IMG/VR virus record: IMGVR_UViG_2563366912_000001
Strand: one strand, 5' to 3'
DNA length: 20,649 nucleotides
DNA from: a virus
Taxonomy: Duplodnaviria > Heunggongvirae > Uroviricota > Caudoviricetes
The stretch's first letter is position 1; every line of letters starts with the position of its first letter. The position numbers and the translations under genes are program-made. Below, in pieces: positions 1 to 18,492 of the stretch. Under the pieces are notes generated by a model. The model was not told the DNA's origin. It did no database searches and worked only from the letters and a program-made list of their open reading frames with translations.

Positions 1-1188
1 GTGGCACGGACAACACGCCCCCTTACCAACACCGAAGTTCTTCGCGCTAAAGCGTTAGAGAAGGATCTAACTCTGCATGATGGCGATGGCCTTTTCCTGA
101 TAGTGAAAACCAGCGGGAAAAAGCTCTGGCGTTTCCGTTATCAACGTCCAGCGACAAAACAGCGGACAATGATGGGGCTTGGTGCTTTCCCCGCCCTTTC
201 ACTTGCTGACGCCCGAGGGTTAAGAGCGGATTACCTTGCCTTGTTAGCCAACGGAATTGACCCACAAATTCAGGCCGAAGTTGCAGAGGAACAGCAGCAA
301 ATCGCTCTGGACAGTATTTTCTCAATGGTCGCCGCTAACTGGTTCCAGCTCAAAAGTAAAAGCGTTACCCCTGATTACGCAAAAGACATTTGGCGCTCAT
401 TGGAGAAAGATGTATTCCCTGCCATCGGTGAGATCCCCGTTCAGCAAATTAAAGCCCGAATATTAGTTGAAGCATTGGAACCAATCAAAGCTCGTGGAGC
501 GCTTGAGACTGTACGTCGACTAGTGCAGCGTATTAACGAGATAATGATTTATGCCGTAAACACTGGTCTGATTGATGCCAATCCAGCATCAGGTATTGGA
601 ATGGCCTTTGAGAAGCCCAAAAAACAAAACATGCCGACGCTGCGGCCAGAAGAATTGCCGAAGCTGATGCGTTCTTTAGTCATGTCAAATCTGTCTGTTC
701 CGACTCGCTGTCTCATTGAATGGCAACTCCTGACGCTCGTGCGCCCTTCTGAGGCCTCTGGTGCCCGTTGGGCAGAGATCGATCTCGATACGAAGCTCTG
801 GACTATTCCAGCCGAACGGATGAAAGCTAAGCGGGAACACATTGTTCCTTTATCACCACAGGCATTAGAGATTCTGGATGTAATGAAGCCAATTAGCGCT
901 CACCGAGAACATGTTTTTCCCAGCAGGAATGATCCTAAACAACCTATGAATAGCCAAACTGCTAATGCTGCTCTTAAAAGGATTGGTTATGGCGGTAAAC
1001 TCGTTGCTCATGGGCTTCGTTCTATAGCTAGCACAGCGTTGAACGAGTCTGGTTTTAATTCCGATATTATAGAATCAGCTTTAGCGCATATAGATAAAAA
1101 TGAAGTACGGCGGGCGTATAATCGTTCTATTTATTTAGAACAACGCAGAGAATTGATGTCATGGTGGGGTATAAAAGTAAAATCATAG
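1..1188 (+). CDS. int: P4/CP4-57-family tyrosine integrase; GTG start at window position 1, so the true start may lie at or just upstream of the window edge
   Basis: 395-codon ORF. N-terminus MARTTRPLTNTE...DGDGLFLIVKTSGKKLWRFRYQRP matches the N-terminal arm of P4-type integrases. C-terminal region has H-x-x-R (VAHGLRS) and a Tyr-containing tail (RAYNRSIYLEQRRELMSWW). Confidence 0.9.
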   Translation: MARTTRPLTNTEVLRAKALEKDLTLHDGDGLFLIVKTSGKKLWRFRYQRPATKQRTMMGLGAFPALSLADARGLRADYLALLANGIDPQIQAEVAEEQQQIALDSIFSMVAANWFQLKSKSVTPDYAKDIWRSLEKDVFPAIGEIPVQQIKARILVEALEPIKARGALETVRRLVQRINEIMIYAVNTGLIDANPASGIGMAFEKPKKQNMPTLRPEELPKLMRSLVMSNLSVPTRCLIEWQLLTLVRPSEASGARWAEIDLDTKLWTIPAERMKAKREHIVPLSPQALEILDVMKPISAHREHVFPSRNDPKQPMNSQTANAALKRIGYGGKLVAHGLRSIASTALNESGFNSDIIESALAHIDKNEVRRAYNRSIYLEQRRELMSWWGIKVKS

Positions 1189-1204
1189 GGCTTTCGCCCT
1201 ATGA
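1183..1204. terminator. 9-bp stem / 4-nt loop hairpin between convergent int and the 99-codon ORF; candidate bidirectional terminator
   Basis: tcatagggc-tttc-gccctatga overlapping the int TAG stop, followed by T-rich sequence. Confidence 0.4.
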
Positions 1205-1212
1205 TTTAATAA

Positions 1213-1512
1213 TTATAAAGTTTCCAATGCGAAATTTCGATATCTCATTAGTGCATAAATATATCTAGTAGTAGATGCAGGTGTCCATGTTCTCTCAAGT
1301 TCTTTTGCTAGTGCTGCCCCCATCATTTTCTTATCATCATCGCCAAATTTATTTACATAAGCATTTAATATTTTGATAGCTGGAGATTCAGTGACTAACC
1401 TAGCTAAAGCCCTTTCAAGGCTGATGCTTTCTAATATAACTTCTATTTTATTATTTATCACCACACCATCATCTTGTCGAGAACAAAAACCTAAAGAAAT
1501 TAAATCCTGCAC
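1213..1512 (-). CDS. Hypothetical small protein (99 aa), downstream partner of the nuclease-NTPase gene
   Basis: Open frame in AT-rich DNA where stops are frequent; GTG start at 1510-1512 overlaps the 3' end of the upstream ORF by 13 nt (stop 1500-1502), same strand, suggesting co-transcription. No recognisable motif. Confidence 0.4.
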   Translation of the reverse strand: MQDLISLGFCSRQDDGVVINNKIEVILESISLERALARLVTESPAIKILNAYVNKFGDDDKKMMGAALAKELERTWTPASTTRYIYALMRYRNFALETL

Positions 1513-3446
1513 TGCATTCCTATGTTTATTCGCCTGAATGAATGGCTCATTTTTTTATTGGCGCACAGATACTCGGCAACTTCGAGTGTTTTTTCTGGCG
1601 AAGTAGCAGCTAAGAAAAGTGATCCTCTTCTATTGCGTGCCCCTCTTTTATCTAGATCAATCGCCCCAAATGCTGGGGAAAACAACTCGCCATCATATAT
1701 AACCACAGATTTCCCGATAACCGCTATCAGCCCCGTAAATTGTAACCAAGCCAATAATTTTGAACTATAAGACTTAGGATAACCACCGTCTTTATTCTTA
1801 TAAGTATGGGCTATTATAGATTCATACTTATCGATAGGAACTCTTCTTAAATCGGCATCAACAATATTCTCTGCCAATTCTAACAAAACACTATGACTCT
1901 TAAAATGCTCACGAAGAAACTCAGGGACATTTGTGATAGTCTGTTTACAAACTATATTCCCATTTAAATCTCTGTCTATGAGAACAAAATACTGCAAATC
2001 CATTAAAACATTTATTAATGTTCCCCGACTATATTTTAGTTTAGTTTGCAGTTCATCCAAGCTAATGGTTTTGAACGAGTTTACAACATCAAGAATTAAC
2101 AAAACCATTTTCGGAGATGTTGATGGCATATATGACCATGGTATAACTGGAAGGTCATTTCCTTTCAAGTAATCTCGAAAAACGTCCCAATACACTGATA
2201 ATTTTTCACCTGTTTTAATTACCATCCTATCTGAAATTAGCTCTAAAACAGTATCACTCCCAAACTCTTTAGTAACTTCATATTGACTAATCGGAGAGTT
2301 CTTTGCCACAAATTTTAAACATGAATTTTGTTTTTCAGGCCTATCTAAATCCTCATGAAATAAATTTGAGATCTGTAGTTGACTAACCAACATTTGATCC
2401 TGTGAGATACCTCCTTTTAGTTTTTTGAATACATGAATACAAAGCTTTTTCAATAACCATGGATAACCTTGAGCTTGCTGAATAAGACGCGTGCGTAAAG
2501 GTTTATTTAATTTAAACCCTGTATTTAGCTCGAAACTATTAATTAATTTAGATGAATCTTTTAGATCAAAAGGCTCAAGTTTCTTTTCAACCCTATAATC
2601 TTTTAGCCGATTCCACATTGAGTACGCTGGATTTTCATCCCCTAAAGTAATACCAGTTCTCCATGAGAACCCTACAACTAAATTGCTTTGTAGTGCCGAG
2701 ACATCGAGTGCGAATCGTTCAAATTCTTTAAATAGCCCGAATAGTTCCTCTTTCATAAAGACTTCTTCGAACTGATCAAAGAAAATAGTCAATACCTTAT
2801 CATGTTCGGAAAGGTATTTTAAACATTCCTGAACACTCTCAGATCCTATGATATCCGTAACACTCTCAATCAGGAATGGTTTTTCATATTCGATAAAACC
2901 TTCTTTGATCGCACTGCTGAAAGCTTTAACGACAGCTTCTGCCACAAAACGTCCGCCTCTAGCAGAACGGACATCGACTGGTGTAAGGAAGAATTTATTC
3001 TTCCATTTTTGATTTTTAAATCTTGAGGATAGCCTTGCTATTAAAGATGACTTTCCATTTCCTGAACCGCCTATAAGTGATAGGACTCTACTTTGAGAGC
3101 TATTTCCTCTAACATTCTCAAGATAATCCCAAACTTCTTTCTGTATATATTCGCGACCAACAAAGTCTTTCGGCTGACATGGCTTATAATCCATAAAATC
3201 GTCAGCAAGAATTATTTCACTGACAATTTCCCTTTCGTAATTTTCAGATAATTTTGAAGACGAAACAGTTTGTTCCGGTTCAGATAATATATAAAAATCA
3301 GTTACTTCCAACCCTTCAAAAAGCCCTTGCTCCTTTATAATATCACTTATGCGACTGACACTTGGAATTTTACTATTTTTATTTATAGCGAACGGCACCA
3401 CTCTTATAGGGCTACCATTTTCAACTTCTTGCAAAAGCCAAGTCAT
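1500..3446 (-). CDS. P-loop NTPase fragment (C-terminal ~80% of the interrupted gene; AAA+/STAND-like, family unassigned)
   Basis: 648-codon ORF. Walker A GGSGNGKS (LSLIGGSGNGKSSLIARL) and Walker B-like hhhhD (LTIFFDQFEEVF) about 90 aa later. Frame stays open upstream of the listed Met through 3447-3598 to the IS1 boundary. AT-rich. Confidence 0.7.
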   Translation of the reverse strand: MTWLLQEVENGSPIRVVPFAINKNSKIPSVSRISDIIKEQGLFEGLEVTDFYILSEPEQTVSSSKLSENYEREIVSEIILADDFMDYKPCQPKDFVGREYIQKEVWDYLENVRGNSSQSRVLSLIGGSGNGKSSLIARLSSRFKNQKWKNKFFLTPVDVRSARGGRFVAEAVVKAFSSAIKEGFIEYEKPFLIESVTDIIGSESVQECLKYLSEHDKVLTIFFDQFEEVFMKEELFGLFKEFERFALDVSALQSNLVVGFSWRTGITLGDENPAYSMWNRLKDYRVEKKLEPFDLKDSSKLINSFELNTGFKLNKPLRTRLIQQAQGYPWLLKKLCIHVFKKLKGGISQDQMLVSQLQISNLFHEDLDRPEKQNSCLKFVAKNSPISQYEVTKEFGSDTVLELISDRMVIKTGEKLSVYWDVFRDYLKGNDLPVIPWSYMPSTSPKMVLLILDVVNSFKTISLDELQTKLKYSRGTLINVLMDLQYFVLIDRDLNGNIVCKQTITNVPEFLREHFKSHSVLLELAENIVDADLRRVPIDKYESIIAHTYKNKDGGYPKSYSSKLLAWLQFTGLIAVIGKSVVIYDGELFSPAFGAIDLDKRGARNRRGSLFLAATSPEKTLEVAEYLCANKKMSHSFRRINIGMQCRI

Positions 3447-3589
3447 TTCTATTTCAGGATGAACTAAAAGTGTTGCACTAGTATATTTTGCCGGAATGTC
3501 ATCTGTTGGAATATCCTCAACCTTACCTGTTGCAAGTATAGATATAAGAATCTCTTTTTTATCAAAAAAAGAATAATCTATACGCTCAT

Positions 3590-3598
3590 CAAGTCTAT
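3590..3598. repeat. IS1 target-site duplication, left copy (caagtctat)
   Basis: Identical 9-mer immediately outside both IS1 ends. Confidence 0.9.
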
Positions 3599-3653
3599 GG
3601 TGATGCTGCCAACTTACTGATTTAGTGTATGATGGTGTTTTTGAGGTGCTCCA

Positions 3654-3929
3654 GTGGCTTCTGTTTCTATCAGCTGTCCCTCCTGTTCAGCTACTGACGG
3701 GGTGGTGCGTAACGGCAAAAGCACCGCCGGACATCAGCGCTATCTCTGCTCTCACTGCCGTAAAACATGGCAACTGCAGTTCACTTACACCGCTTCTCAA
3801 CCCGGTACGCACCAGAAAATCATTGATATGGCCATGAATGGCGTTGGATGCCGGGCAACTGCCCGCATTATGGGCGTTGGCCTCAACACGATTTTACGTC
3901 ACTTAAAAAACTCAGGCCGCAGTCGGTAA
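3654..3929 (+). CDS. insA: IS1 InsA (91 aa)
   Basis: Translation [43 protein letters not shown]... is the IS1 InsA zinc-finger/HTH protein. Confidence 0.95.
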
Positions 3930-4351
3930 CCTCGCGCATACAGCCGGGCAGTGACGTCATCGTCTGCGCGGAAATGGACGAACAGTGGGGCTATGTCGGG
4001 GCTAAATCGCGCCAGCGCTGGCTGTTTTACGCGTATGACAGTCTCCGGAAGACGGTTGTTGCGCACGTATTCGGTGAACGCACTATGGCGACGCTGGGGC
4101 GTCTTATGAGCCTGCTGTCACCCTTTGACGTGGTGATATGGATGACGGATGGCTGGCCGCTGTATGAATCCCGCCTGAAGGGAAAGCTGCACGTAATCAG
4201 CAAGCGATATACGCAGCGAATTGAGCGGCATAACCTGAATCTGAGGCAGCACCTGGCACGGCTGGGACGGAAGTCGCTGTCGTTTTCAAAATCGGTGGAG
4301 CTGCATGACAAAGTCATCGGGCATTATCTGAACATAAAACACTATCAATAA
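3848..4351 (+). CDS. insB: IS1 InsB frame (expressed as InsAB' transposase by -1 frameshift)
   Basis: 167-aa ORF ...[54 protein letters not shown]... overlapping insA in the -1 frame. Confidence 0.9.
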
Positions 4352-4361
4352 GTTGGAGTCA

Positions 4362-4727
4362 TTACCCAAGTCTATAATCCTCAAGCGTTGACTGAGCATC
4401 TTTACCCAAATCAGAAATTGAAAAAAGTGCAATTTTTTTAACTCTCAACCTAAATGCTTGAGAAAATGCCAAATCAACCACAGATGAATCAACTTTTTGC
4501 TGCATGAATTTACATTCTACATACAGCTTTTCATTTGATGGTGTATGAGTAGCCTGAATATCAATTTCCATGCCAGATTTTCTGACTTCCATACCATCAA
4601 TTCTATACGATTGCCGGCGGAGTATATCAGCGCAAAAATTCTCGAAAAACTTCCCTCTCGAGGTATTGGAATAATTACTAGGTACACAAACTATCAAATC
4701 TTTATTCAGTGGTAACGGCCTGGCCAT
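4362..4727 (-). CDS. Mrr-type PD-(D/E)xK restriction-endonuclease-like domain; N-terminal fragment of the interrupted nuclease-NTPase gene
   Basis: Motif GKFFENF...ADIL...SGMEIDIQA...KLYVECKF fits the Mrr catalytic core (D ... E-x-K). AGGAG RBS 7 nt upstream of ATG at 4727. ORF ends in a stop created by the IS1 terminus. Confidence 0.65.
   Translation of the reverse strand: MARPLPLNKDLIVCVPSNYSNTSRGKFFENFCADILRRQSYRIDGMEVRKSGMEIDIQATHTPSNEKLYVECKFMQQKVDSSVVDLAFSQAFRLRVKKIALFSISDLGKDAQSTLEDYRLG
4367..4375. repeat. IS1 target-site duplication, right copy (caagtctat)
   Basis: Identical 9-mer immediately outside both IS1 ends. Confidence 0.9.
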
Positions 4728-4847
4728 TTATACACTCCTTATCTCATATCCTTTTGACAAGTAAGATATCAACCTCGAGTTTCAGAAACCAGTATCTTGC
4801 GCATATTTACGACATCAAAACTTTTGGTTATGCACCCACAGCGCGCA

Positions 4848-4866
4848 GTGCTTTCCCCGCCTCGCC
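4848..4866 (-). other. cos site (19-nt cohesive-end sequence of P2/P4 type)
   Basis: Reverse complement of 4841-4866 is GGCGAGGCGGGGAAAGCACTGCGCGC, matching the P2/P4 cohesive end and adjacent bases as I recall them. Position between the cargo and psu matches the P4 map. Confidence 0.75.
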
Positions 4867-4969
4867 CGCCCGCTTTGCGGGGCGGTTTTAATGCAGTTGC
4901 ACTGACACGCTCAGACCGCGCCGGGAATGGTGCGGTCTGCAGAAAATGAGGCAGGAAAACGCATGCAAA

Positions 4970-5000
4970 GCCATGCACCTTATCGATGCATGGCTTTTTT
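4970..5000. terminator. Hairpin plus T6 just beyond the psu stop; candidate bidirectional terminator
   Basis: gccatgca-(9 nt)-tgcatggc followed by tttttt on the + strand and preceded by an A-run as seen from the minus strand. Confidence 0.4.
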
Positions 5001-5030
5001 CAGTAAAAACGGGAGGATTTTCGGGGAATT

Positions 5031-5603
5031 TTACACAGACTGACGTGATGCCAGTTGCGCACTTTTACGCGAAAAAATCATGTTCTGCGCAGGGGTGAAT
5101 TTTTCACGGCTGTCATCCACCGAAGCCGCGTCAGGCCTGAATCCGATGGTCGTTAAAATGTCACTATCCTGTGCGGAATAATTAATTTTTTCCCCCTTCG
5201 CAAGCCAGGACAGAAGGGCTTCACGCAGGGCATCTGTGGCACGCTGTATGGCACAGTTTCGGGCAATGGCCGTCAGCTCACTGTAGCCCATCAGCTCCGG
5301 TGCCAGTGCCGCCGCCAGTGCTGTGCCGTGCTGCTGCATAAAATCATTCAGCCGGTCGCGGATGCTGATGTGCTGAACGGCTTCATGCGAACGAATATAA
5401 CGACCGGCGGCCTGATTCACCTGCCATTTTCTGACTTCGATAATATTGCGTAATTCGTCCAGGCGACTGACGTTTCTGCCTTCTCCTGACTGAATCCGCA
5501 GATATTCCTGTTCGGCCGCAGCCAGCTCATTTTTGCGTTGCAGCCATGCTGCTTTGTTATTCTGACAGGTGTCAAAGGCCTGCTGTAAGGCTGTGCTTTC
5601 CAT
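5031..5603 (-). CDS. psu: P4 Psu-like polarity suppression protein (190 aa)
   Basis: Length matches P4 Psu (190 aa); last gene of the sid-delta-psu late operon arrangement. Confidence 0.85.
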   Translation of the reverse strand: MESTALQQAFDTCQNNKAAWLQRKNELAAAEQEYLRIQSGEGRNVSRLDELRNIIEVRKWQVNQAAGRYIRSHEAVQHISIRDRLNDFMQQHGTALAAALAPELMGYSELTAIARNCAIQRATDALREALLSWLAKGEKINYSAQDSDILTTIGFRPDAASVDDSREKFTPAQNMIFSRKSAQLASRQSV

Positions 5604-5676: not shown

Positions 5677-6177
5677 TCATTCCAGACGCAGCGAATATGA
5701 TTGTGTTTTTAACCGTACTGGCGGCAGTTCCTGTTTTTCATGCAGACTTTCTGCAAGCTCGTCCGGCGTGACCGGGCGGACAATGAAGCGGTTGATGGTC
5801 TGAAGCGTTTTAAACACCAGACCACAGCCCGGATCCGTGCACACATAAAAACGCTCGGTGACTTCCTGAGACAGACGCCGCGATGTTCTTGACAGCGCAA
5901 GGCCTTTACATCTCCGACAACAATATCCGGTAACAAGCATTCTTTTCGGGCGCTTCATGCTGCCGGAGGCTGACGTCAGTGAATCGCGGTATCTCTGTTT
6001 GCCTGAAATGTATTCCATTCCTGAATCTTTACAGTCAGAGAAAAAGCTTTCACTCGCTTCAAATGTCGCAGAGCAATAAATATTCCGGCACTGTGCAATC
6101 ATTATCTTGGTGCCATCGTCCATGAAATGTGCGCGACGGGTGTGAGCAACATGTCCACACGACGGGCAGTAAATCAT
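5677..6177 (-). CDS. delta: P4 Delta-like late transcription activator (tandem Ogr-type zinc fingers, 166 aa)
   Basis: Two Ogr-like modules: CPSCGHVAHTRRAH...C..IYCSATFEASES and YCCRRCKG...VCTDPGCGLVFKT. Length equals P4 Delta. Start overlaps the sid stop. Confidence 0.9.
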   Translation of the reverse strand: MIYCPSCGHVAHTRRAHFMDDGTKIMIAQCRNIYCSATFEASESFFSDCKDSGMEYISGKQRYRDSLTSASGSMKRPKRMLVTGYCCRRCKGLALSRTSRRLSQEVTERFYVCTDPGCGLVFKTLQTINRFIVRPVTPDELAESLHEKQELPPVRLKTQSYSLRLE

Positions 6178-6908
6178 GACAGCAGTCCTCTGGCCTTAAG
6201 CTTTGCTCCCTGCTGGTCTATTTTGTCCTGCCACACCTTGCGCTGTGCCGGTGTGCCTGCCACCTCATAATCCATGTGCGGGAGTGTTGCCGCTGACAGT
6301 CCGGTCAGCCGGAGAACCGGCTCGCCGGTGAGGCTGATTTGCATCTGTTTTATTTTCTGTTCCAGCGATGATTTCACCTGCTGCATGACAGCCTTTTCCG
6401 GTGCGACGTAGCCCTGATGGCCGGTGGTGTTGGCGAGCGGATTTTCCTGTACCAGGATGCTCAGATGCATTGCCCGGACAAGCGCCTCACAGGTTTCATT
6501 CAGGGCGTGTTCCAGCTCATGCTCTGCATACAGACTCAGCAGGTGATGATGTGCCTTCCGGTAGGCGGTGGCCGTGCTGTCACACGCCCCTTTCAGGCGT
6601 TCGCGTTCAAAATTCAGCACCACGGCCAGATTGTCATATTCCTGTACCAGCTCCCGGCGTGCCACGCGCTCAATGTGGCGCTGTTTCAGCTCGTCGCTCA
6701 GGACACCACCGGCTGCACGAAAGGCCGTGCGCCAGTCGTCAGCGTCGTTTCCGTCGGCCTGCGCCAGCGCATTTTTTTCCTGCTCTGCCCGTTCAATGGC
6801 CGTGACGGTCTCATCCATCAGGCGGGCGTTCTCAAGATGGGCGGCTCTGGCCTTTTCCAGTTGTGCCAGTGCGGGTTTCAGATATTCAGGGATAGTGTGG
6901 TCAGACAT
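6174..6908 (-). CDS. sid: P4 Sid-like capsid size-determination protein (244 aa from ATG at 6908; the track's longer form uses GTG at 6926)
   Basis: ATG at 6906-6908 is preceded by AGGAG with 7-nt spacing and gives MSDHTIPEYL..., 244 aa as in P4 Sid. Helix-rich, charged protein. Confidence 0.85.
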   Translation of the reverse strand: MSDHTIPEYLKPALAQLEKARAAHLENARLMDETVTAIERAEQEKNALAQADGNDADDWRTAFRAAGGVLSDELKQRHIERVARRELVQEYDNLAVVLNFERERLKGACDSTATAYRKAHHHLLSLYAEHELEHALNETCEALVRAMHLSILVQENPLANTTGHQGYVAPEKAVMQQVKSSLEQKIKQMQISLTGEPVLRLTGLSAATLPHMDYEVAGTPAQRKVWQDKIDQQGAKLKARGLLS

Positions 6909-6942
6909 TTTCCGGCTCCTCGTCACTTCAGGTTAAGAAAAT

Positions 6943-8594: not shown

Positions 8595-9042
8595 TTTTCC
8601 CCAGCCCGGTGAGATTTACCGTTCTGCCGGTTTTCCCGATGTGGCCGTGGTCGGCATTCTGGAAGACGGTATTCCGTGGGAAATGCCGTACCGCTGCCCG
8701 GACATTGTCTGGAACCCGTACCGCCGTAAATTCAGTATCCTTGTGCGTATCCTCGATGACGGGCGCACCACAGACATCCCGCTGGGGCGTTTTCTGCGGG
8801 AATTTACCTGTGACCGTCCTGACCTGTTTAAACGCAGCCCCGTAAACCGGCATGCGGTACTGAAAGAAATGGCCGGAGACCCGGAATTACAGAAATGGCG
8901 GGAGAAATATCTGGATATTTACCCGCAGGACACTGTTCCGGCCAGCCGGGCGGCACCGGTGGCGCGGGAATGGCGGGAAATTCCCCGCACGGAGCCTGAC
9001 CCGGAAATCACCCCGGATAACAGTTACCGCAATTATCTGTAA
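8587..9042 (+). CDS. P4 orf151-like hypothetical protein (151 aa)
   Basis: Translationally coupled to the upstream ORF; same length as P4 orf151; typical codon usage. Confidence 0.55.
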   Translation: MFDFPQPGEIYRSAGFPDVAVVGILEDGIPWEMPYRCPDIVWNPYRRKFSILVRILDDGRTTDIPLGRFLREFTCDRPDLFKRSPVNRHAVLKEMAGDPELQKWREKYLDIYPQDTVPASRAAPVAREWREIPRTEPDPEITPDNSYRNYL

Positions 9043-9177
9043 TTAAAAAACGATACCCGAAAAATTAAATGTGCGTATTCGCGCAGGGATACGCACGTCT
9101 TCAGGAGACGCAGATATGCCTTATCAGTTAATGCAACCGGCACGGAATGCAGTCATCTGTCACAGGGAGGAAAACAA

Positions 9178-9498
9178 ATGAAAACACCCTTACCGCCCGT
9201 CTTACGCGCTGCCCTTTACCGTCGCGCTGTCGCCTGTGCCTGGCTGACCGTGTGCGAACGTCAGCACCGCTACCCGCATCTCACCCTTGAGTCACTGGAG
9301 GCGGCCATCGCCGCTGAGCTGGAAGGCTTTTATCTGCGCCAGCACGGTGAGGAAAAAGGGCGTCAGATAGCCTGTGCCCTGCTGGAAGATTTAATGGAAT
9401 CCGGCCCCCTGAAGGCCGCGCCGTCGCTGTCCTTTCTCGGGCTGGTTGTGATGGATGAACTCTGTGCCCGTCACATAAAAGCGCCGGTACTGCACTGA
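9178..9498 (+). CDS. Hypothetical early-operon protein (106 aa)
   Basis: GGGAGG RBS upstream of the ATG; lies directly upstream of the primase gene. Confidence 0.55.
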
Positions 9499-11343
9499 AG
9501 GAGAACAACACCATGAAAATGAACGTAACCGCCACCGTCAGCCATGCGCTCGGCCACTGGCCGCGTATTCTCCCGGCGCTGGGGATTCAGGTGCTGAAGA
9601 ACCGTCATCAGCCCTGTCCGGTCTGTGGCGGGAGTGACCGCTTCCGTTTTGATGACAGGGAGGGGCGTGGCACCTGGTACTGCAATCAGTGTGGTGCCGG
9701 TGACGGCCTGAAACTGGTTGAAAAGGTGTTTGGTGTTTCCCCGTCCGACGCGGCCGCAAAGGTGGCTGCCGTGACCGGCTGCCTGCCCCCGGCTGACCCG
9801 GCAGTGACGGCCGCCGCCGGTGCTGAAACAGAAGCCGCCCGGAAGAACGCCGCCGCACTGGCACAAACCCTGATGGCAAAAACCCGTCCCGGAACCGGTA
9901 ACGCCTACCTGACCCGCAAGGGCTTTCCCGGCCGGGAATGCCGGATGCTGACCGGCACACACAGAGCCGGTGGCGTGAGCTGGCGCGCCGGTGACCTTGT
10001 GGTGCCACTGTATGACGACAGCGGCGAACTGGTTAACCTTCAGTTAATCAGTGCTGACGGCCGTAAGCGCACCCTGAAAGGCGGACAGGTCAGGGGCACC
10101 TGTCACACCCTTGAAGGACAGAATCAGGCAGGAAAACGTCTGTGGATAGCGGAGGGATACGCGACCGCACTTACCGTGCATCACCTGACCGGTGAAACGG
10201 TGATGGTGGCGCTTTCTTCCGTGAACCTCCTTTCTCTGGCCAGCCTTGCCCGACAGAAGTATCCGGCCTGTCAGATTGTCCTTGCCGCAGACCGTGACCT
10301 CAGCGGTGACGGCCAGACAAAAGCCGCCGCAGCCGCAGATGCGTGTGAGGGCGTTGTTGCCCTGCCGCCGGTCTTCGGTGACTGGAATGATGCCTTCACG
10401 CAGTACGGCGGGGAGGCCACCCGTAAGGCCATTTACGATGCCATCCGGCCACCGGCTGAAAGCCCGTTCGACACCATGAGCGAAGCGGAGTTTTCCGCCA
10501 TGAGTACCAGCGAAAAGGCCATGCGTATCTATGAGCATTACGGCGAGGCGCTCGCGGTTGATGCCAACGGCCAGCTTCTGTCCCGCTATGAAAATGGTGT
10601 CTGGAAGGTGCTGCCACCACAGGACTTTGCCCGGGATGTGGCCGGGCTGTTTCAGCGTCTGCGCGCGCCGTTCTCCTCCGGGAAGGTGGCCTCCGTGGTG
10701 GACACCCTGAAGCTGATTATTCCGCAGCAGGAAGCCCCCTCCCGCCGCCTGATTGGCTTTCGTAACGGCGTGCTCGACACGCAGAACGGCACGTTCCACC
10801 CGCACAGTCCGTCACACTGGATGCGCACCCTGTGCGATGTGGATTTCACCCCGCCGGTGGACGGTGAAACACTGGAGACCCACGCCCCCGCGTTCTGGCG
10901 CTGGCTTGACCGTGCCGCCGGTGGCCGTGCGGAAAAACGCGACGTGATTCTGGCCGCACTGTTTATGGTGCTGGCAAACCGCTACGACTGGCAGCTCTTT
11001 CTGGAGGTGACCGGTCCCGGCGGCAGCGGCAAAAGTATCATGGCCGAAATAGCCACCCTGCTGGCTGGTGAGGATAACGCCACGTCGGCCACCATCGAGA
11101 CGCTGGAATCCCCGCGTGAACGTGCCGCGTTAACTGGCTTCTCACTGATACGCCTGCCGGACCAGGAAAAATGGAGCGGCGACGGAGCCGGACTCAAGGC
11201 CATCACCGGCGGCGATGCGGTGTCCGTTGACCCGAAATACCGGGATGCGTACTCCACGTGCGTATTACCGTGAAGGAGATCGGTGAGTAACATCGATGGA
11301 GATCGGTTCGTGTCACTTTCACAGAACCGTTTTTAAATTACCT

Positions 11344-12093
11344 TCACTGATCTCCTTCGGTCAACGGAGATTGTATTTTCCGCATTGATTCTCCTTTAAG
11401 TTCGATCTTGATACTGCCATGAACCAGTCGATCTAGGATGGCATCCGCATGTGTGGAGTCTCCGATCATTTTGTACCAGTTTTCCACCGGCAACTGGCTC
11501 ACTACGATGATTGAGCCTCGTTGGTACATCAGATCCACTATTTCCAGCAGGTCGCTACGCTGTTCTGATGAGAGAGGTTCCAGCCCCCAGTCATCCAGAA
11601 GCAGCAGATCGCTATTATTCAGCCTGGTCAAAAGTTTGCTGTATCTTCCATCAGCATGCCCCTGATAGCACTGTTCCATCAGCGCTTTAAGGCGATAATA
11701 GTAGACCTTGTATCCCTGTCGGCAGGCATTATGACCAAGTGCACATGCCAGGAACGTTTTACCGCTGCCGGTGGCCCCGGTCAGTAAAATATTTTGTTTC
11801 AGGGTTAACCAGTTTCCCTGACTGAGTGAACGGATGAGGGCCCTGTCCAGCCCTCTATTGTTACGATAATCCAGCTTTGATAACTCAGCATTAAGTCTGA
11901 ACCGTGCATGTTTGATCAGACGCTCTGCCTTCCTGTTTTCACGGCAGGTTAGTTCTTCTGCTGTCAGTAATGACAGGCGTTCTTCGAAGCCCAGCTCCTG
12001 GTATGTGCCCGGCTGAGCAAGTTGCTTTTTAAGCGCATCACGGAAGCCGGTGAGTTTAAGTGCGGTCAGTTGTTCGTAAAGATGATTCATCAT
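11344..12093 (-). CDS. istB: IS21-family IstB helper ATPase (249 aa)
   Basis: Walker A LLTGATGSGKTFLACALG and Walker B LLLLDDWG; gene follows istA with an 11-nt gap. Confidence 0.9.
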   Translation of the reverse strand: MMNHLYEQLTALKLTGFRDALKKQLAQPGTYQELGFEERLSLLTAEELTCRENRKAERLIKHARFRLNAELSKLDYRNNRGLDRALIRSLSQGNWLTLKQNILLTGATGSGKTFLACALGHNACRQGYKVYYYRLKALMEQCYQGHADGRYSKLLTRLNNSDLLLLDDWGLEPLSSEQRSDLLEIVDLMYQRGSIIVVSQLPVENWYKMIGDSTHADAILDRLVHGSIKIELKGESMRKIQSPLTEGDQ

Positions 12094-12104
12094 TGGATCC
12101 CGTA

Positions 12105-13646
12105 TCAGTGGTAATACTCACTGCCGCGTACGTTTTCGTGTTCCATCGTGGATAACAGATCTGGTTTTGGATCCTGAACAGGTTGTTTATCCAGACCTTT
12201 TTCCAGGATCGATTTAATACCTGACAGACGCCATACCTTTGTTTTCAGAGCTCTTGCACATGCTGCATTAAGTCTGGCTTTACTGTATTTTTTATGAAGG
12301 TTCAGGAGTCCAAGGCAGAAGCGATAGCTTTGTTCCGGATGTGGACGAGAGTTCAGTATATGAAGCACATAACTATGAGTTTCACTGCCTATGTGCCCCG
12401 CCCATTCCAGAAGACGCTCTGGCGTCCAGGTGGCATGCTGTCGATGAGCTTCAGGCATGTGCTCGTTGCGGGTACTGTAGCCATAAGTACGCTTGCGCGG
12501 GTGCACAGCAACCTCCTGCCCCTGATTGAAGAGTCTTACCAGTTCTCCGGAGATCCATGCTTCCAGTTGCTGGCCTAACAGCGAACATGGAACCGAGTAG
12601 TAATGTTTGTCGATTTCCACGTGGTAATCGGCATGAACTCTGACTTTCTTCACCAGGGTGTAACTGTAACTGGCTTCAGGAAGAGGCTTCAGTGCGGGTT
12701 TATCAAGCTGGATGAAGAGTTCTGCACGTGAATAACCCAACTTCTGCATTATTTTGTTATTCAGTCTTTCCAGCAACTCCCGAATGCGCTGATTAAGCGA
12801 TGCAAGGCTGTAGAAGATCTCATGCCTGATTCGGGCCATGATCCAGCGTTCAACAACCTGAACGCCAACTTCAGCTTTGGCTTTATCTTTCGGTTTACGT
12901 GGCCGCGCAGGCAAAACTGCGACATTATAATGCTCAAGCATCTGCTGGTAGGTAGGGTTAACGTCAGGATCATACTTACATGCCCTGGATGTGGCGCTTT
13001 TCAGATTGTCCGGAACAACAAGTTCAGGAACGCCACCCAACCACTGGAAGCAGCGAACATGACTCATCACCCAGTCTTCAAGATGCTGAGACCAGGTGGC
13101 CTCTGCCCATGTGTAACTTGATGCCCCGAGAACAGCTACGATGACCTGAGCAGTTCTTATTTCTCCGGTCTCAGGGTCGGTAACGCCAACGGTAGGTCCA
13201 CAGTAATCAACGAAAAGTTTTTCGCCAGCTTTATGTACCTGACGCATTGATGGTGAAGTGGTTTTGAGCCATTCACGGTACATCCGGCAGTAATGGTTAT
13301 AGCTGTAAAAACCGCCTGGATTACGCTCACAGTATTCTTCCCAGAGTAGCTGCAGCGTCACGCATTTATTACGCAGTTCCCGGTGTACTGTAGCCCAGTC
13401 AGGCAGAGAGTGCTTCTTCATCTTAACCTGGGTCTGAAGGAACGCATGTTTTAGTTTTGTATCATCCCATCCTGTAGGTAAGGGCCACTGCTTTATGCCA
13501 AGTTGAGCCGCCCGATTAGCATATCTGGATACAACGGAAGGGGAGATTGCAAGACTACGACCAATTTGTCGATGGCTGAGTCCAACACCGTATTTAAGCC
13601 TAAGAATTTCTTTAAGTTTTCTCATAGAAATTGGAACTGTTGGCAT
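12105..13646 (-). CDS. istA: IS21-family IstA transposase (513 aa)
   Basis: N-terminal HTH (LSHRQIGRSLAISPSVVSRY) followed by an integrase-core-like region; AAGGA RBS; paired with istB. Confidence 0.9.
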   Translation of the reverse strand: MPTVPISMRKLKEILRLKYGVGLSHRQIGRSLAISPSVVSRYANRAAQLGIKQWPLPTGWDDTKLKHAFLQTQVKMKKHSLPDWATVHRELRNKCVTLQLLWEEYCERNPGGFYSYNHYCRMYREWLKTTSPSMRQVHKAGEKLFVDYCGPTVGVTDPETGEIRTAQVIVAVLGASSYTWAEATWSQHLEDWVMSHVRCFQWLGGVPELVVPDNLKSATSRACKYDPDVNPTYQQMLEHYNVAVLPARPRKPKDKAKAEVGVQVVERWIMARIRHEIFYSLASLNQRIRELLERLNNKIMQKLGYSRAELFIQLDKPALKPLPEASYSYTLVKKVRVHADYHVEIDKHYYSVPCSLLGQQLEAWISGELVRLFNQGQEVAVHPRKRTYGYSTRNEHMPEAHRQHATWTPERLLEWAGHIGSETHSYVLHILNSRPHPEQSYRFCLGLLNLHKKYSKARLNAACARALKTKVWRLSGIKSILEKGLDKQPVQDPKPDLLSTMEHENVRGSEYYH

Positions 13647-14450
13647 AGGTATCCTTTACCGGAATGGCAAAAGATACAGATCAACACACCTGTGAAGTTC
13701 CAATAACATTGATGGAGATCACTGAATAACAAAATGAGTCAAAAGTGATCTCCATCGATGTTATTCAGCGATCTGTTCAAATGTTATTACCCGATCTCGA
13801 TGGAAGTTATTGAGTGATCTCCTTTCATGAAAATACGCACTCCACGCACATCCCGGCGGTAATTCTGGCCGTGAACAATAACCCGATGCGCTTCACCGAC
13901 CGCAGCGGCGGCGTGTCACGCCGGCGGGTGATTATTCACTTCCCGGAACAGATAGCCCCGCAGGAGCGCGACCCGCAGCTTAAGGACAAAATCACCCGCG
14001 AGCTGGCGGTCATCGTGCGTCACCTGATGCAGAAGTTCAGCGACCCGATGCTCGCCCGGTCACTGCTTCAGTCCCAGCAGAACTCAGACGAGGCACTGAA
14101 CATCAAACGGGATGCCGACCCGACGTTTGATTTTATCGGCTATCTGGAAACCCTGCCGCAGACCAGCGGCATGTATATGGGGAACGCCAGTATCATCCCG
14201 CGTAATTACCGTAAATACCTCTATCACGCCTATCTGGCCTACATGGAGGCAAACGGCTACCGGAATGTACTCAGTCTGAAAATGTTCGGGCTGGGGCTGC
14301 CGGTGATGCTGAAGGAATACGGACTGAATTACGAGAAGCGCCATACCAAACAGGGGATACAGACCAACCTGACGCTGAAAGAGGAAAGCTACGGCGACTG
14401 GCTGCCAAAATGTGACGACCCTGCAACAACCTGACCATCATGACTCATCT

Positions 14451-15107: not shown

Positions 15108-18100
15108 TCAGAACGACCAGTTCACACCAGCTACCCCGTTCCACGGGGATTCCACACCGGCACCATGGCTATACCCCACCCCAAGATGCCCGCTTAACGT
15201 ACTGCTGAATGAGGCTTTAATACCTGCCTGGTATATTCCACGTCTGCCCGACAAATCATTGACGAAATTACCGTCACTATTCACTTTCACCCGGTTATCA
15301 TCGACAAATTCTTTGCGCACAGCCGCCTTCAGCCACGGCTCAACTTCCATACCGTTCCCCAGACGCATGTTGTAACTCAGCGTTGCACCCAGTTCACGAT
15401 ATAAACTGCGGGTATCGACTGATTTCGATTCCATGCCATTGGATAAATGATATTCAGGGTTATCAGCGGTGAACCCCCGTTAACGATGCATACGGCGTCA
15501 GGTTCCAGTTACCATCGGTAAATCGCATCCCGGTTTCAATGTGACCGCCCAGCCCGTAGCTGCGATAACTGCCGTTGGCGGCTCCACCGCTGCCAACCGT
15601 GGAGTCGCGAGCTTCGGTACCTGCTAATACCAATAAATTACCGCCATTTTCCAGCAACATATTGGTCGCTAAATTGCCGGAAATGGAAAAAGTGCCGTAC
15701 TGGTGAGTACCGCTGATTTCAATACCGTTAGCCGTGCTCGTCTGGAGAGCGGCACCGCTGTTCTGGACGATATCTGTCGCTTTGCCATTATCGTTAACTG
15801 TCAGCGTACCGCCTTCATTGATCTTTGTTTTTATTGCCTCTCCGTTAGCTGAAACTGTTTGTATTCCGCCGTCGTTAATCGTTGTCTCATTCGCCACCCC
15901 CTCGACGATTTGTTCGCCGCCGGTGAGCGTCGTGCCTGTCGCAGTGGCTTTTGTTTTGACGATCTCCCGTCCGCCCGTATTGACCTGTGTTTTGTCAGAA
16001 GAGGTGTCTGACTCCACGGTTAACACGCCGCCATTTGCCAGCAGGATATTGTTCGCCGCACCCTGCTCGATGCTGAACGCGACGCCATCCGCGCGTGTTC
16101 CTGTGACCCGCGTCGCCCTGGTGGTTGCAACCAAAGCGCCCTGGCTACTCTGCTGTATCCCCGTTGCGCTGCCTTTCTCCCGCACATCGAGTGTGCCGCC
16201 GTCATTAAGCACCGAGTTTTCAGCCAGACCGCCCTCATTAACTACCTGTGAACACCCATTAATAATGGAACCTTCCGCTATCCCGTTTGCCATAATTTGT
16301 TGTAGGCCAGAGACGATATCGGTATTGATCGCCTTACCATAATTCTGAACGGTTTGTGTGCCGCCATTGATGTGCGTTTTGTCAGTTGACCCACCATCAA
16401 CAATTTGTTCACCACTTTCAATATTTGCCTCAGTGGCTAAACCATATACCGTTTGCTTGCCACCTTTGATATTTGCTTTATCAGAAGTGGCACTGGCATA
16501 TATTGTTTGGGTGCCAGCACTATTAAGTACAGTGCCAACATCTTTTCCATAAACATCCATTTTGCCGTTGGCATTAATAATCGTATCAACTGCCCGGGAA
16601 CCAGTGACGACTGTTAATGAGCCAGCGTTTTCCAGCACTACATTTTTAGCTTCTGAATTCCTGATGTAGAAAGCATCACCATAACTGTTGGTTCCTTCGA
16701 TAAGGGTTCCGGAAGTTGTGGAAGCAATTAATGCGCCGCCGGATTGTTGCTCAACATGCTTAGCCTCACCACCGTCCTGAACCTCCAGAACGCCACCATT
16801 ATTAAGTCTGGTGGTATCTGTTTTAGCCTCCTTCTGGACAATCAGCTTACCGCCAGCATCAACGGTAGTATTTTTCGCCGAGGTTTTAGCCACTACCGTC
16901 AGTTCGCCGGTATTTTCCAGCACAACATAATTAGCCTCCCCTCCGGTAATAGTGAAGTGAGAGAGCTTGTTGTATCCTTCAATATCAGTCCCTGCGCCCG
17001 TGTTGGCAACTAAAGCACTGCCCGTCTCCTGGTTAACCCCATGTGCAATACCGCCGGTATAGACAATCAGCGAGCCTCCGGCGCTAATATTGCTGCCAAT
17101 TGCCGTACCATCTTTCTCAACAACTTGCTGGCTCCCGGAGGATATAATTGTTGTGTCAGCTTTCCCACCGCTTTTGATATTTTGCGTTCCGCTGTTGATA
17201 TTGGTGCCTGTGGCTATGCCATAATTATTAAGATTCTGTGTGCCACCATTAATTATGGTATTTGTCGCGTTTCCTGCAACATCCATAACCCCGCCATTAT
17301 CTATTCGGGTCGCATCAGCTTTAGCATTCGTTAAAACTGACATTGTTCCTTTATCTTTAATAATCGTCTTGTTTGCGGAATGAGATACTTCTAAATGGCC
17401 TCCATTTTCCAGCAACACATTGTCTTCCACTTTATTGTGGATGGAGAATGCACCTTCACTATTCGTACCGCTCACCGTCGTACCGTTAGTGTTTGTTTTT
17501 AAAATTGCACCATCGTGCTGGGTAACATTTGTTGCCGTACCACCACTAACATCAAGCACGCCACCGGAATAAACTTCAATAACATCCGAGGTGCTGGTGT
17601 TATCAACAATTTGCGTGCCACCAGAATAGATCTGCGTAATTTTTGCCGTTGACTTACTATTCAGAGACTGAGTTCCGCCTTCAATCGTCGTGTCCAGCGC
17701 ACGGCTCTCATATACTCTTTGCTCACCGCCATTTTTAATGGTTGTTGTTTCTACTGTGCTCTGTTCAACATACTGTCGACCACCATTTATGGTTGTGTTC
17801 GTTGCCAGACTTCCTTGTACTACGTCCTGAGAGCCAGACTTATTTATCGTTGTACCATCAGCATGCCCTTGAACTTTTACTATCTGGCTACCACCATCAA
17901 TGAGTATTCCATTCGCACTCCCTCCCTCTACGCGTGAAGCACCGCCCTTAATTGTCGTTCCATTGCTGATACCCCCTTTATAAACGTCCTGATTGCCACT
18001 CTCGATTGTCGTACCTGTGGAAATACCCCCGTCATGAATTGACTGTCTGCCACCGTTAATGGTTGTATTATTAGCCTGCCCCACAAAATTGTTATGACTT

Positions 18101-18492
18101 CCTATATCTTGATATCCACCAGATTCAATAAGACTTCCATTAGATACCCCGCCATGAACATTCTGCTGGCCATGGTTGATAATATGAGTGTTATTTGTTG
18201 TACCTCGTTCATCCACTTTTTGGTTGCCATCTACAGTCTCATCGTTTACCACACCAATAACATCAGGAGTGAAGGCCGCCATACCGGGCGGGGCATATAT
18301 CAAGGCAGATATCAATAAGGAAAGTACTGAGCGGCGACAATAATGGGGACTGGTCCTGTTCATAAATTTCATCCTCTGAAAAGTGAATACTGAGTAGCGT
18401 TTAAGCGACCTTAGCTCTGCTGCAACATCAGCCCACAGGCACCAGACCAGGGGATTCATCCTGAAGAGACAGCGCAAGTGTATTGTGTTCAC
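15108..18492 (-). pseudogene. AIDA-I-type autotransporter adhesin, disrupted: passenger ORF (15463-18492, probable start near 18363-18372) and beta-domain C-terminal ORF (15108-15434) in different frames
   Basis: Extended signal peptide MKFMNRTSPHYCRRSVLSLLISALIYAPPGMAA. About 900 aa of degenerate beta-helix repeats (TTINGG.Q..). C-terminus ...LGVGYSHGAGVESPWNGVAGVNWSF is a beta-barrel terminal strand. Frames separate at a C5/G5 tract (15474-15478). Translocator portion looks too short for a 12-strand barrel. Confidence 0.75.

Follow-up and report, generated by a model that had tools for sequence, protein, structure and literature searches.

P4 satellites carry their defence hotspot between psu and int (Rousset et al. 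2022). The closest described system is P4 hotspot genetic system 13 (Rousset et al.), encoded by the protein WP_000113630.1, for which RefSeq gives the names 'restriction endonuclease' and 'nSTAND1 domain-containing NTPase'. The protein sequence is absent from the table of tested systems of Rousset 2022, and the literature yielded no published test of whether the intact protein acts against phage. In a survey of P4 and P2, the loss of a core gene from defective P4 satellites most often concerned the primase (Moura de Sousa et al. 2026, PMC13586616), and defence pseudogenes are rare in P4, accounting for <1% of pseudogenes, with the defences of defective elements usually being intact (PMC13586616). 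A search of the literature on the inactivation of defence genes by insertion sequences retrieved nothing specific.

Here we describe a disrupted allele of this gene in a stretch of 20,649 nucleotides, referred to as the window, in which a P4-like satellite has integrated as a prophage at ssrA of E. coli. Residues 1-805 of the window allele are 100% identical to WP_000113630.1 and lie at the same psu-int position. The catalogued protein is intact, whereas the window allele is broken both by an IS1 insertion and by a 4-bp deletion. With a probability of about 0.9, we consider that the region is a doubly inactivated single-gene candidate anti-phage system in the psu-int hotspot, and that its lesions arose recently in one clone. 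The positions of the features are summarized in Table 1.

Table 1. Features of the satellite, the disrupted gene and its insertion, by position in the window, followed by the predicted domains of the intact protein, by residue
Feature	Position	Strand	Description
int	1-1188	+	
Terminator-like hairpin	1180-1207	-	12-bp stem, T-rich tail; consensus scan; directly after the true stop
Whole pseudogene	1213-4727	-	P4-hotspot Mrr-nuclease/nSTAND1-NTPase gene; disrupted allele of WP_000113630.1 (intact, 913 aa)
C-terminal coding region	1213-1534	-	native residues 806-913, stranded in another frame
Middle fragment	1500-3598	-	native residues 121-805 + 11 out-of-frame residues (RRINIGMQCRI)
Second lesion	1535-1542		TGAATGAA, two TGAA units; three in intact alleles (TGAATGAATGAA)
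Target-site duplication, left copy	3590-3598		9 bp, CAAGTCTAT; abuts IS1
IS1 (IS1A type)	3599-4366	+	complete, 768 bp; intact ends and frames
IS1 terminal inverted repeats	3599-3621 and 4344-4366		imperfect
IS1 insA frame	3654-3929		open, intact
IS1 insB frame	3848-4351		open, intact
IS1 A6C slippery (-1 frameshift) site	3903		TTAAAAAAC; intact
N-terminal fragment ORF	4362-4727	-	121 aa; native residues 1-120 + Gly; TAA from IS1
Target-site duplication, right copy	4367-4375		9 bp, CAAGTCTAT; abuts IS1
69-aa ORF	between defence gene and psu		
psu	5031-5603		
delta	5677-6177		
sid	6174-6926		
alpA/ash/derepression region	after sid		
alpha primase-helicase	starts 9513		interrupted in the window
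Target duplication of IS21-family element	11252-11258 and 13840-13846		7 bp, CTCCACG
IS21-family element	11259-13839		2581 bp; splits alpha primase-helicase (9513-11258, continuing 13847-14434)
IS21-family istB	11344-12093	-	
IS21-family istA	12105-13646	-	
Predicted nuclease domain	residues 1-120		AlphaFold2
Predicted beta-rich domain	residues 125-210		AlphaFold2
Predicted disordered linker	residues 223-238		AlphaFold2
Predicted NTPase with helical and winged-helix subdomains	to ~residue 600		AlphaFold2
Predicted further winged-helix-like modules and helical bundle	to residue 913		AlphaFold2

The IS1 insertion and its target duplication

In the pairwise comparison of its two 23-bp ends, which read GGTGATGCTGCCAACTTACTGAT at the left and, after reverse complementation, GGTAATGACTCCAACTTATTGAT at the right, the IS1 copy exhibited identity at 18 of 23 positions. 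The InsAB product, read in the identical locus L003, comprises 232 aa and contains PF03811, PF12759, and PF03400. The element is 100% identical to RefSeq copies named 'IS1-like element IS1A family transposase', and its transposase is antisense to the disrupted gene. IS1 of this kind was found in 4971 of 5426 complete E. coli genomes, with a median of 11 copies per genome.

When both strands of the 20.6-kb window were searched, only two copies of CAAGTCTAT were found, and the chance of a 9-mer match at a fixed position is ~4e-6. The target is AT-rich, at ~37% GC compared to 53% for IS1. The empty site with one CAAGTCTAT was observed at six loci (L001, L002, L007, L008, L012, and L013). The IS1 event is a genuine simple transposition with a 9-bp target duplication and represents a textbook case. 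An earlier note, made from the window alone, had described a complete 768-bp IS1 within a perfect 9-bp repeat and had pointed to related strains as the place to look for the empty site; the flanking 9-mers were again identical on re-examination, and the site is present, as a single CAAGTCTAT, in related genomes including STEC346.

The minus-strand ORF that starts from the ATG at 4727 reads ...EDYRL, followed by one G and a TAA. The right end of IS1 supplies the TAA (4362-4364) as well as two bases of the Gly codon, so that the N-terminal fragment indeed ends at a stop donated by the insertion, as had been proposed. In-silico deletion of IS1 and one repeat copy, followed by translation, yielded ...EDYRL-DERIDYSFFDKK... 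in frame, and the rebuilt ORF of 816 aa remained open as far as 1500, in agreement with the in-frame junction claimed previously.

IS1 is a multicopy element and indels are easily miscalled in short tandem repeats, and therefore an assembly might be suspected of having joined IS1 copies wrongly or of containing a false indel. However, a 2.25-Mb scaffold of GCA_000408245.1 matches the window at 100% identity over 11.5 kb, and the same IS1 junctions and/or (TGAA)2 were observed in GCA_000408245.1, GCA_030346285.1, GCA_000326765.1, GCA_047780865.1, SRR30325189, and SRR12175229. Single contigs, the longest of 2.25 Mb, span both junctions, which were found again in several independent assemblies and read sets, and the perfect 9-bp duplication is the signature of a real transposition. 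The recurrence of the junctions and/or the deletion therefore excludes an assembly artefact, and the probability left to an assembly or sequencing error is negligible.

The IS1 insertion is thus not private to one isolate, since at least six assemblies or read sets in the public record share its junctions. Between IS1-bearing loci, the chromosomal flanks are 0-1 SNP apart in 9.5 kb, indicating that these loci represent one clone. The lesions are fixed in this repeatedly sampled clone.

The 4-bp deletion and the ancestral form of the gene

The intact gene encoding WP_000113630.1 is carried by 54 of 5426 complete E. coli genomes, and in 53 of these 54 carriers it is a single uninterrupted ORF of 2742 bp encoding 913 aa. 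The two alleles differ at a TGAA tract, which is CGCC-TGAATGAATGAA-TGGCTC in the intact form and TGAATGAA in the window. The longer (TGAA)3 version was observed in all of the complete E. coli genomes with the gene (54/54). In the alignment of STEC346 to the window sequence without IS1 (3024 bp), the sole difference was the absence of 4 bp from the window. The change from (TGAA)3 to (TGAA)2 is a slipped-strand deletion of 4 bp. It puts the gene out of frame after residue 805, so that the last 108 residues, which are conserved, are lost from the product. In the window alone this frameshift is hidden, because the shifted frame happens to be open for 11 codons.

These results bear on the earlier claim that one gene had been hit by a simple transposition and that its ancestral ORF can be rebuilt exactly, in which case precise excision of IS1 would regenerate a functional gene. 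The perfect target duplication, the intact IS1, and the in-frame junction without a stop as far as 1500 are all consistent with such a reading. However, the rebuilt ORF of 816 aa ends in 11 out-of-frame residues, whereas all of the intact alleles and the distant homologues have 108 further residues, which are still readable at 1213-1534 in the window, and the 4-bp difference from 54/54 complete genomes already refutes the reading. A frame break, which the earlier note itself had named as the finding that would speak against it, is therefore present in the form of the TGAA loss after residue 805, and the rebuilt 816 aa fall short of the ancestral 913 aa. Thus, the simple IS1 event stands, but 'simple' understates the decay of the gene, and excision of IS1 alone would not restore it. 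We regard a single, reversible IS1 inactivation as highly improbable.

STEC346 also allows the lesions to be placed in time. Its chromosomal flank is identical to that of the IS1 clone over 7800 bp, and its satellite is 99.97% identical to that of the window over 6.9 kb. STEC346 nevertheless has the empty site, three TGAA units, the 913-aa ORF, and an intact primase. The presence of an intact allele on an identical flank indicates that both lesions are recent, and the view that the transposition was a recent event, put forward from the window alone, is borne out by the 4-bp indel as the difference over 3024 bp and by the identical 7.8-kb flank.

The (TGAA)2 allele was also observed in L013 (SRR31850240), which carries no IS1. 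The chromosomal flank of L013 is 2.8% divergent from that of the IS1 clone and is identical to that of L007, and L013 shares a synonymous SNP at window position 1635 (G>A) with the group of L007. The divergent background and the different synonymous SNP indicate that the deletion in L013 arose independently and that L013 is not an intermediate. The (TGAA)2 state of all of the IS1-bearing loci, together with the empty site of L013, had raised the possibility that the frameshift preceded IS1; because the deletion in L013 is independent, it is no evidence for that order, and either lesion may have come first. The 4-bp TGAA slippage is therefore recurrent, having arisen independently in two chromosomal backgrounds.

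The homologue search retrieved 536 relatives, of which the full-length ones have ~900 aa and cover ~100% of the 913-aa query, down to 28% identity. They originate from Serratia, Pantoea, Pectobacterium, Vibrio, Aeromonas, Acinetobacter, Photobacterium, and metagenomes. The last 108 residues are covered, with few gaps, in 53/53 aligned homologues (28-81% identity). In the 53-sequence alignment, R897 is invariant and R812, N813, L818, L821, W890, and S894 are conserved at >=90%, and the mean conservation of the tail is 0.376, compared to 0.398 for the remaining sensor. In the AlphaFold2 model, the tail completes a winged-helix module and forms the terminal helical bundle, with a pLDDT of ~81-94. 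The presence of the tail in all of the homologues and its conservation indicate that the 913-aa form is ancestral and that the tail is under constraint, and this pattern of conservation suggests that the 108-aa tail is probably essential.

If the tail were instead dispensable, the 816-aa (TGAA)2 form would be a tolerated or functional variant and IS1 would be the sole inactivating event. Exact-sequence look-ups retrieved the 816-aa frameshift-only product, without IS1, from 3 public contigs, where it is recorded as HGT7299190.1, HIB9894007.1, and MEF6812051.1, and the independent deletion in a second background could be read in the same direction. However, the tail is retained in 53/53 homologues, with invariant or near-invariant residues and a confidently predicted fold, and the allele is rare, being found in 0/54 complete genomes and in 3 contigs compared to at least 1000 contigs with the intact 913-aa protein. 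We therefore consider a dispensable tail improbable and retain two inactivating lesions as the preferred reading. The same exact-sequence look-ups found the 121-aa fragment in 8 contigs and the 648-aa fragment in 7 contigs.

Other truncated alleles were also observed. Public protein clusters contain N-terminal fragments of 84, 123, 161, 165, and 207 aa without a partial flag, and L007 encodes a 767-aa product of the same defence gene. These truncated alleles are several independent inactivations, set against at least 1000 intact copies.

The recurrence of the same deletion in two backgrounds, the several other truncated alleles, and the IS1 hit could together suggest that the gene is unusually prone to loss, as a costly or self-toxic NLR-like nuclease might be, and that (TGAA)3 is a recurrent slippage hotspot serving as an off-switch. 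Against a TGAA contingency switch, three units are very short, the gene is full length in 53/54 genomes, and exact look-ups of the predicted (TGAA)4 (810 aa) and (TGAA)1 (806 aa) products returned no record. Such a switch is unlikely.

The predicted protein and its three fragments

In the intact protein, Pfam Mrr_cat matched residues 24-117 with 32.1 bits (cut-off, 21), and Pfam nSTAND1 matched residues 255-402 above its curated cut-off. E54, D56, E71, and K73 of the nuclease, the Walker A motif (G297-S302), and D392, E395, and E396 of the Walker B motif are invariant within the family (53-sequence alignment). The AlphaFold2 model of the 913-aa protein had a mean pLDDT of 83.7. As in STAND-type proteins, a P-loop NTPase core with Walker A and B motifs is followed by helical and winged-helix subdomains, and, as in the effectors of the Avs/NLR-like group, an N-terminal Mrr nuclease is fused to the NTPase. 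The C-terminal region of ~430 aa is predicted to consist of winged-helix-like modules and a helical bundle, and not of TPR repeats.

Searches with the PADLOC models, including Avs1-5, gave no match beyond a weak one to the DndF P-loop, and NCBIfam and PHROGs gave no meaningful match for the protein. Single-sequence and profile searches of the PDB returned nothing significant, with marginal P-loop and wHTH matches only. On the basis of sequence and model, the protein therefore appears to share the architecture of the Avs group while lying outside the Avs1-5 models, and it is a candidate Avs-like nuclease. An assignment as a type IV (Mrr-like) restriction endonuclease does not fit, as the catalytic domain alone is shared and the rest of the protein is a STAND NTPase with a sensor. 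The RefSeq name 'restriction endonuclease' therefore describes one domain only.

By analogy with the Avs/NLR paradigm (PMC13581612), from which the individual steps are drawn, the C-terminal sensor of the intact 913-aa protein would bind a phage component, the NTPase would then drive oligomerisation, and the clustered nuclease domains would cut DNA, leading to abortive infection. The two lesions would strike this scheme at different points. IS1 at codon 120/121 separates the effector from the regulator, and the loss of TGAA puts the sensor tail out of frame. Either lesion alone should abolish function. With the effector uncoupled and the sensor truncated, the system should be dead twice over, which supports the earlier suggestion that the gene is inactive in this strain.

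In the window, the gene presently consists of three ORFs, of 121, 648, and 99 aa, and not of the two that had been joined into one gene on first inspection. The IS1 insertion at codon 120/121 falls at the boundary between the nuclease and the linker, where the last helix of the nuclease domain spans residues 109-119 in the AlphaFold2 model, and it severs the fusion of the nuclease to the NTPase. The 121-aa fragment contains the complete Mrr-like PD-(D/E)xK nuclease domain (E54, D56, E71, and K73). No start codon was found on scanning the sequence between the IS1-internal stop and M169, and the first start codon of the middle fragment is the ATG at 3446 (M169), which opens a 648-aa ORF at 1500-3446. 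The middle fragment comprises the beta domain, the NTPase with its Walker A (G297-S302) and Walker B (D392-E396) motifs, and most of the sensor. The stranded C-terminal region is listed as a 99-aa ORF at 1213-1512, with the true stop codon at 1213-1215.

The whole nuclease domain in the 121-aa fragment and the whole NTPase in the 648-aa ORF raise the question of whether the split gene works as separate polypeptides, either as a free Mrr nuclease with an NTPase-sensor partner or as a dominant-negative or decoy fragment. However, translation of the downstream ORF would start at M169, with the loss of part of the beta domain, and the sensor tail is missing as well. A promoter scan of 1100-5100, in which sites were no more numerous than in shuffled sequence, found no promoter-like site directed out of IS1 toward the downstream fragment; this counts as weak evidence, and the scan carries no information on the expression of the fragments. 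Moreover, IS1 insertions are classically polar. An Avs effector is activated through covalent coupling to its oligomerising NTPase (PMC13581612), which also counts against separate polypeptides. A working split gene is thus very improbable, and a doubly inactivated gene remains the preferred reading. Because effectors of this kind require oligomerisation for activity, the nuclease domain released as the 121-aa fragment is presumably harmless.

Downstream of the gene, the hairpin at 1180-1207 lies between the convergent integrase (stop at 1188) and defence (true stop at 1213) genes and resembles a bidirectional terminator shared by the two. A GC-rich hairpin at 4866-4885 (CCGCCCGC...GCGGGGCGG, then TTTT) lies within the 69-aa ORF, upstream of the defence gene, and the contig of L013 ends at this hairpin.

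The decaying satellite and its comparison with known systems

Pfam and PHROG matches were obtained for the gene set in the P4 order, and in near-identical loci in RefSeq, Sid, Psu, Ogr/Delta, and the primase-helicase are annotated, adjoining ssrA. The alpha gene, which is split by an IS21-family element in the window, is uninterrupted in STEC346 and EC1722-1, where it encodes 777 aa. The whole satellite element is decaying.

Several further observations were made at related loci. In L002 (E. coli strain 4/4, NZ_CP023826.1), which has the same satellite, an independent IS1 at 9001-9772 lies in the integrase gene, and the defence gene is intact. In L004 (GCA_030346285.1), a junction ~183 bp upstream of int places the right end of the IS21-family element next to the int-proximal attachment region, instead of the ssrA 3' end present in L010; a rearrangement involving IS copies may explain it, as may a join made in the assembly. 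Beyond the satellite, a 1009-aa ORF of AIDA repeats (YpjA/EhaD-like autotransporter adhesin) occupies 15463-18492, and its counterpart in STEC346 and EC1722-1 is annotated as a frameshifted or partial pseudogene.

The locus is a case of ordinary pseudogenisation, that is, the decay of a cargo gene of a mobile element. The target gene had been catalogued before, and GenBank has contained the broken allele for years. The methodological lesson is that an open frame after in-silico excision of an insertion sequence does not prove recovery of the ancestral gene; intact alleles must be compared as well, which in this case exposed a hidden frameshift. WP_000113630.1, an Avs-like nuclease with a predicted non-TPR sensor, whose intact form is not encoded in the window, is a reasonable candidate for experiments.

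Compared with IS1A insertion mutations in E. coli, the element has the same length, ends, insA/insB' frames with the A6C site, 9-bp duplication, and AT-rich target. It thus exhibits nothing unusual relative to ordinary E. coli IS1 insertions, and the interest lies in the target gene alone.

Compared with Avs4 (EcAvs4, PDB 8dgf), the intact protein has ~60% of the length (913 vs 1534 residues). Its sensor is predicted to be built of winged-helix-rich alpha/beta modules, whereas the sensors of Avs4 and other Avs proteins are mostly TPR-like repeats. In addition, it differs from the Avs and STAND proteins in having no sequence-level match to solved structures and no match to a PADLOC Avs model.

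Overall, the locus is a clear example of an uncommon state, namely a twice-broken defence gene in a P4 satellite with a broken primase. As in the defective P4 satellites surveyed in PMC13586616, the primase is pseudogenised, here by an IS21-family element, whereas the defence gene, being broken twice, is an exception to that survey.
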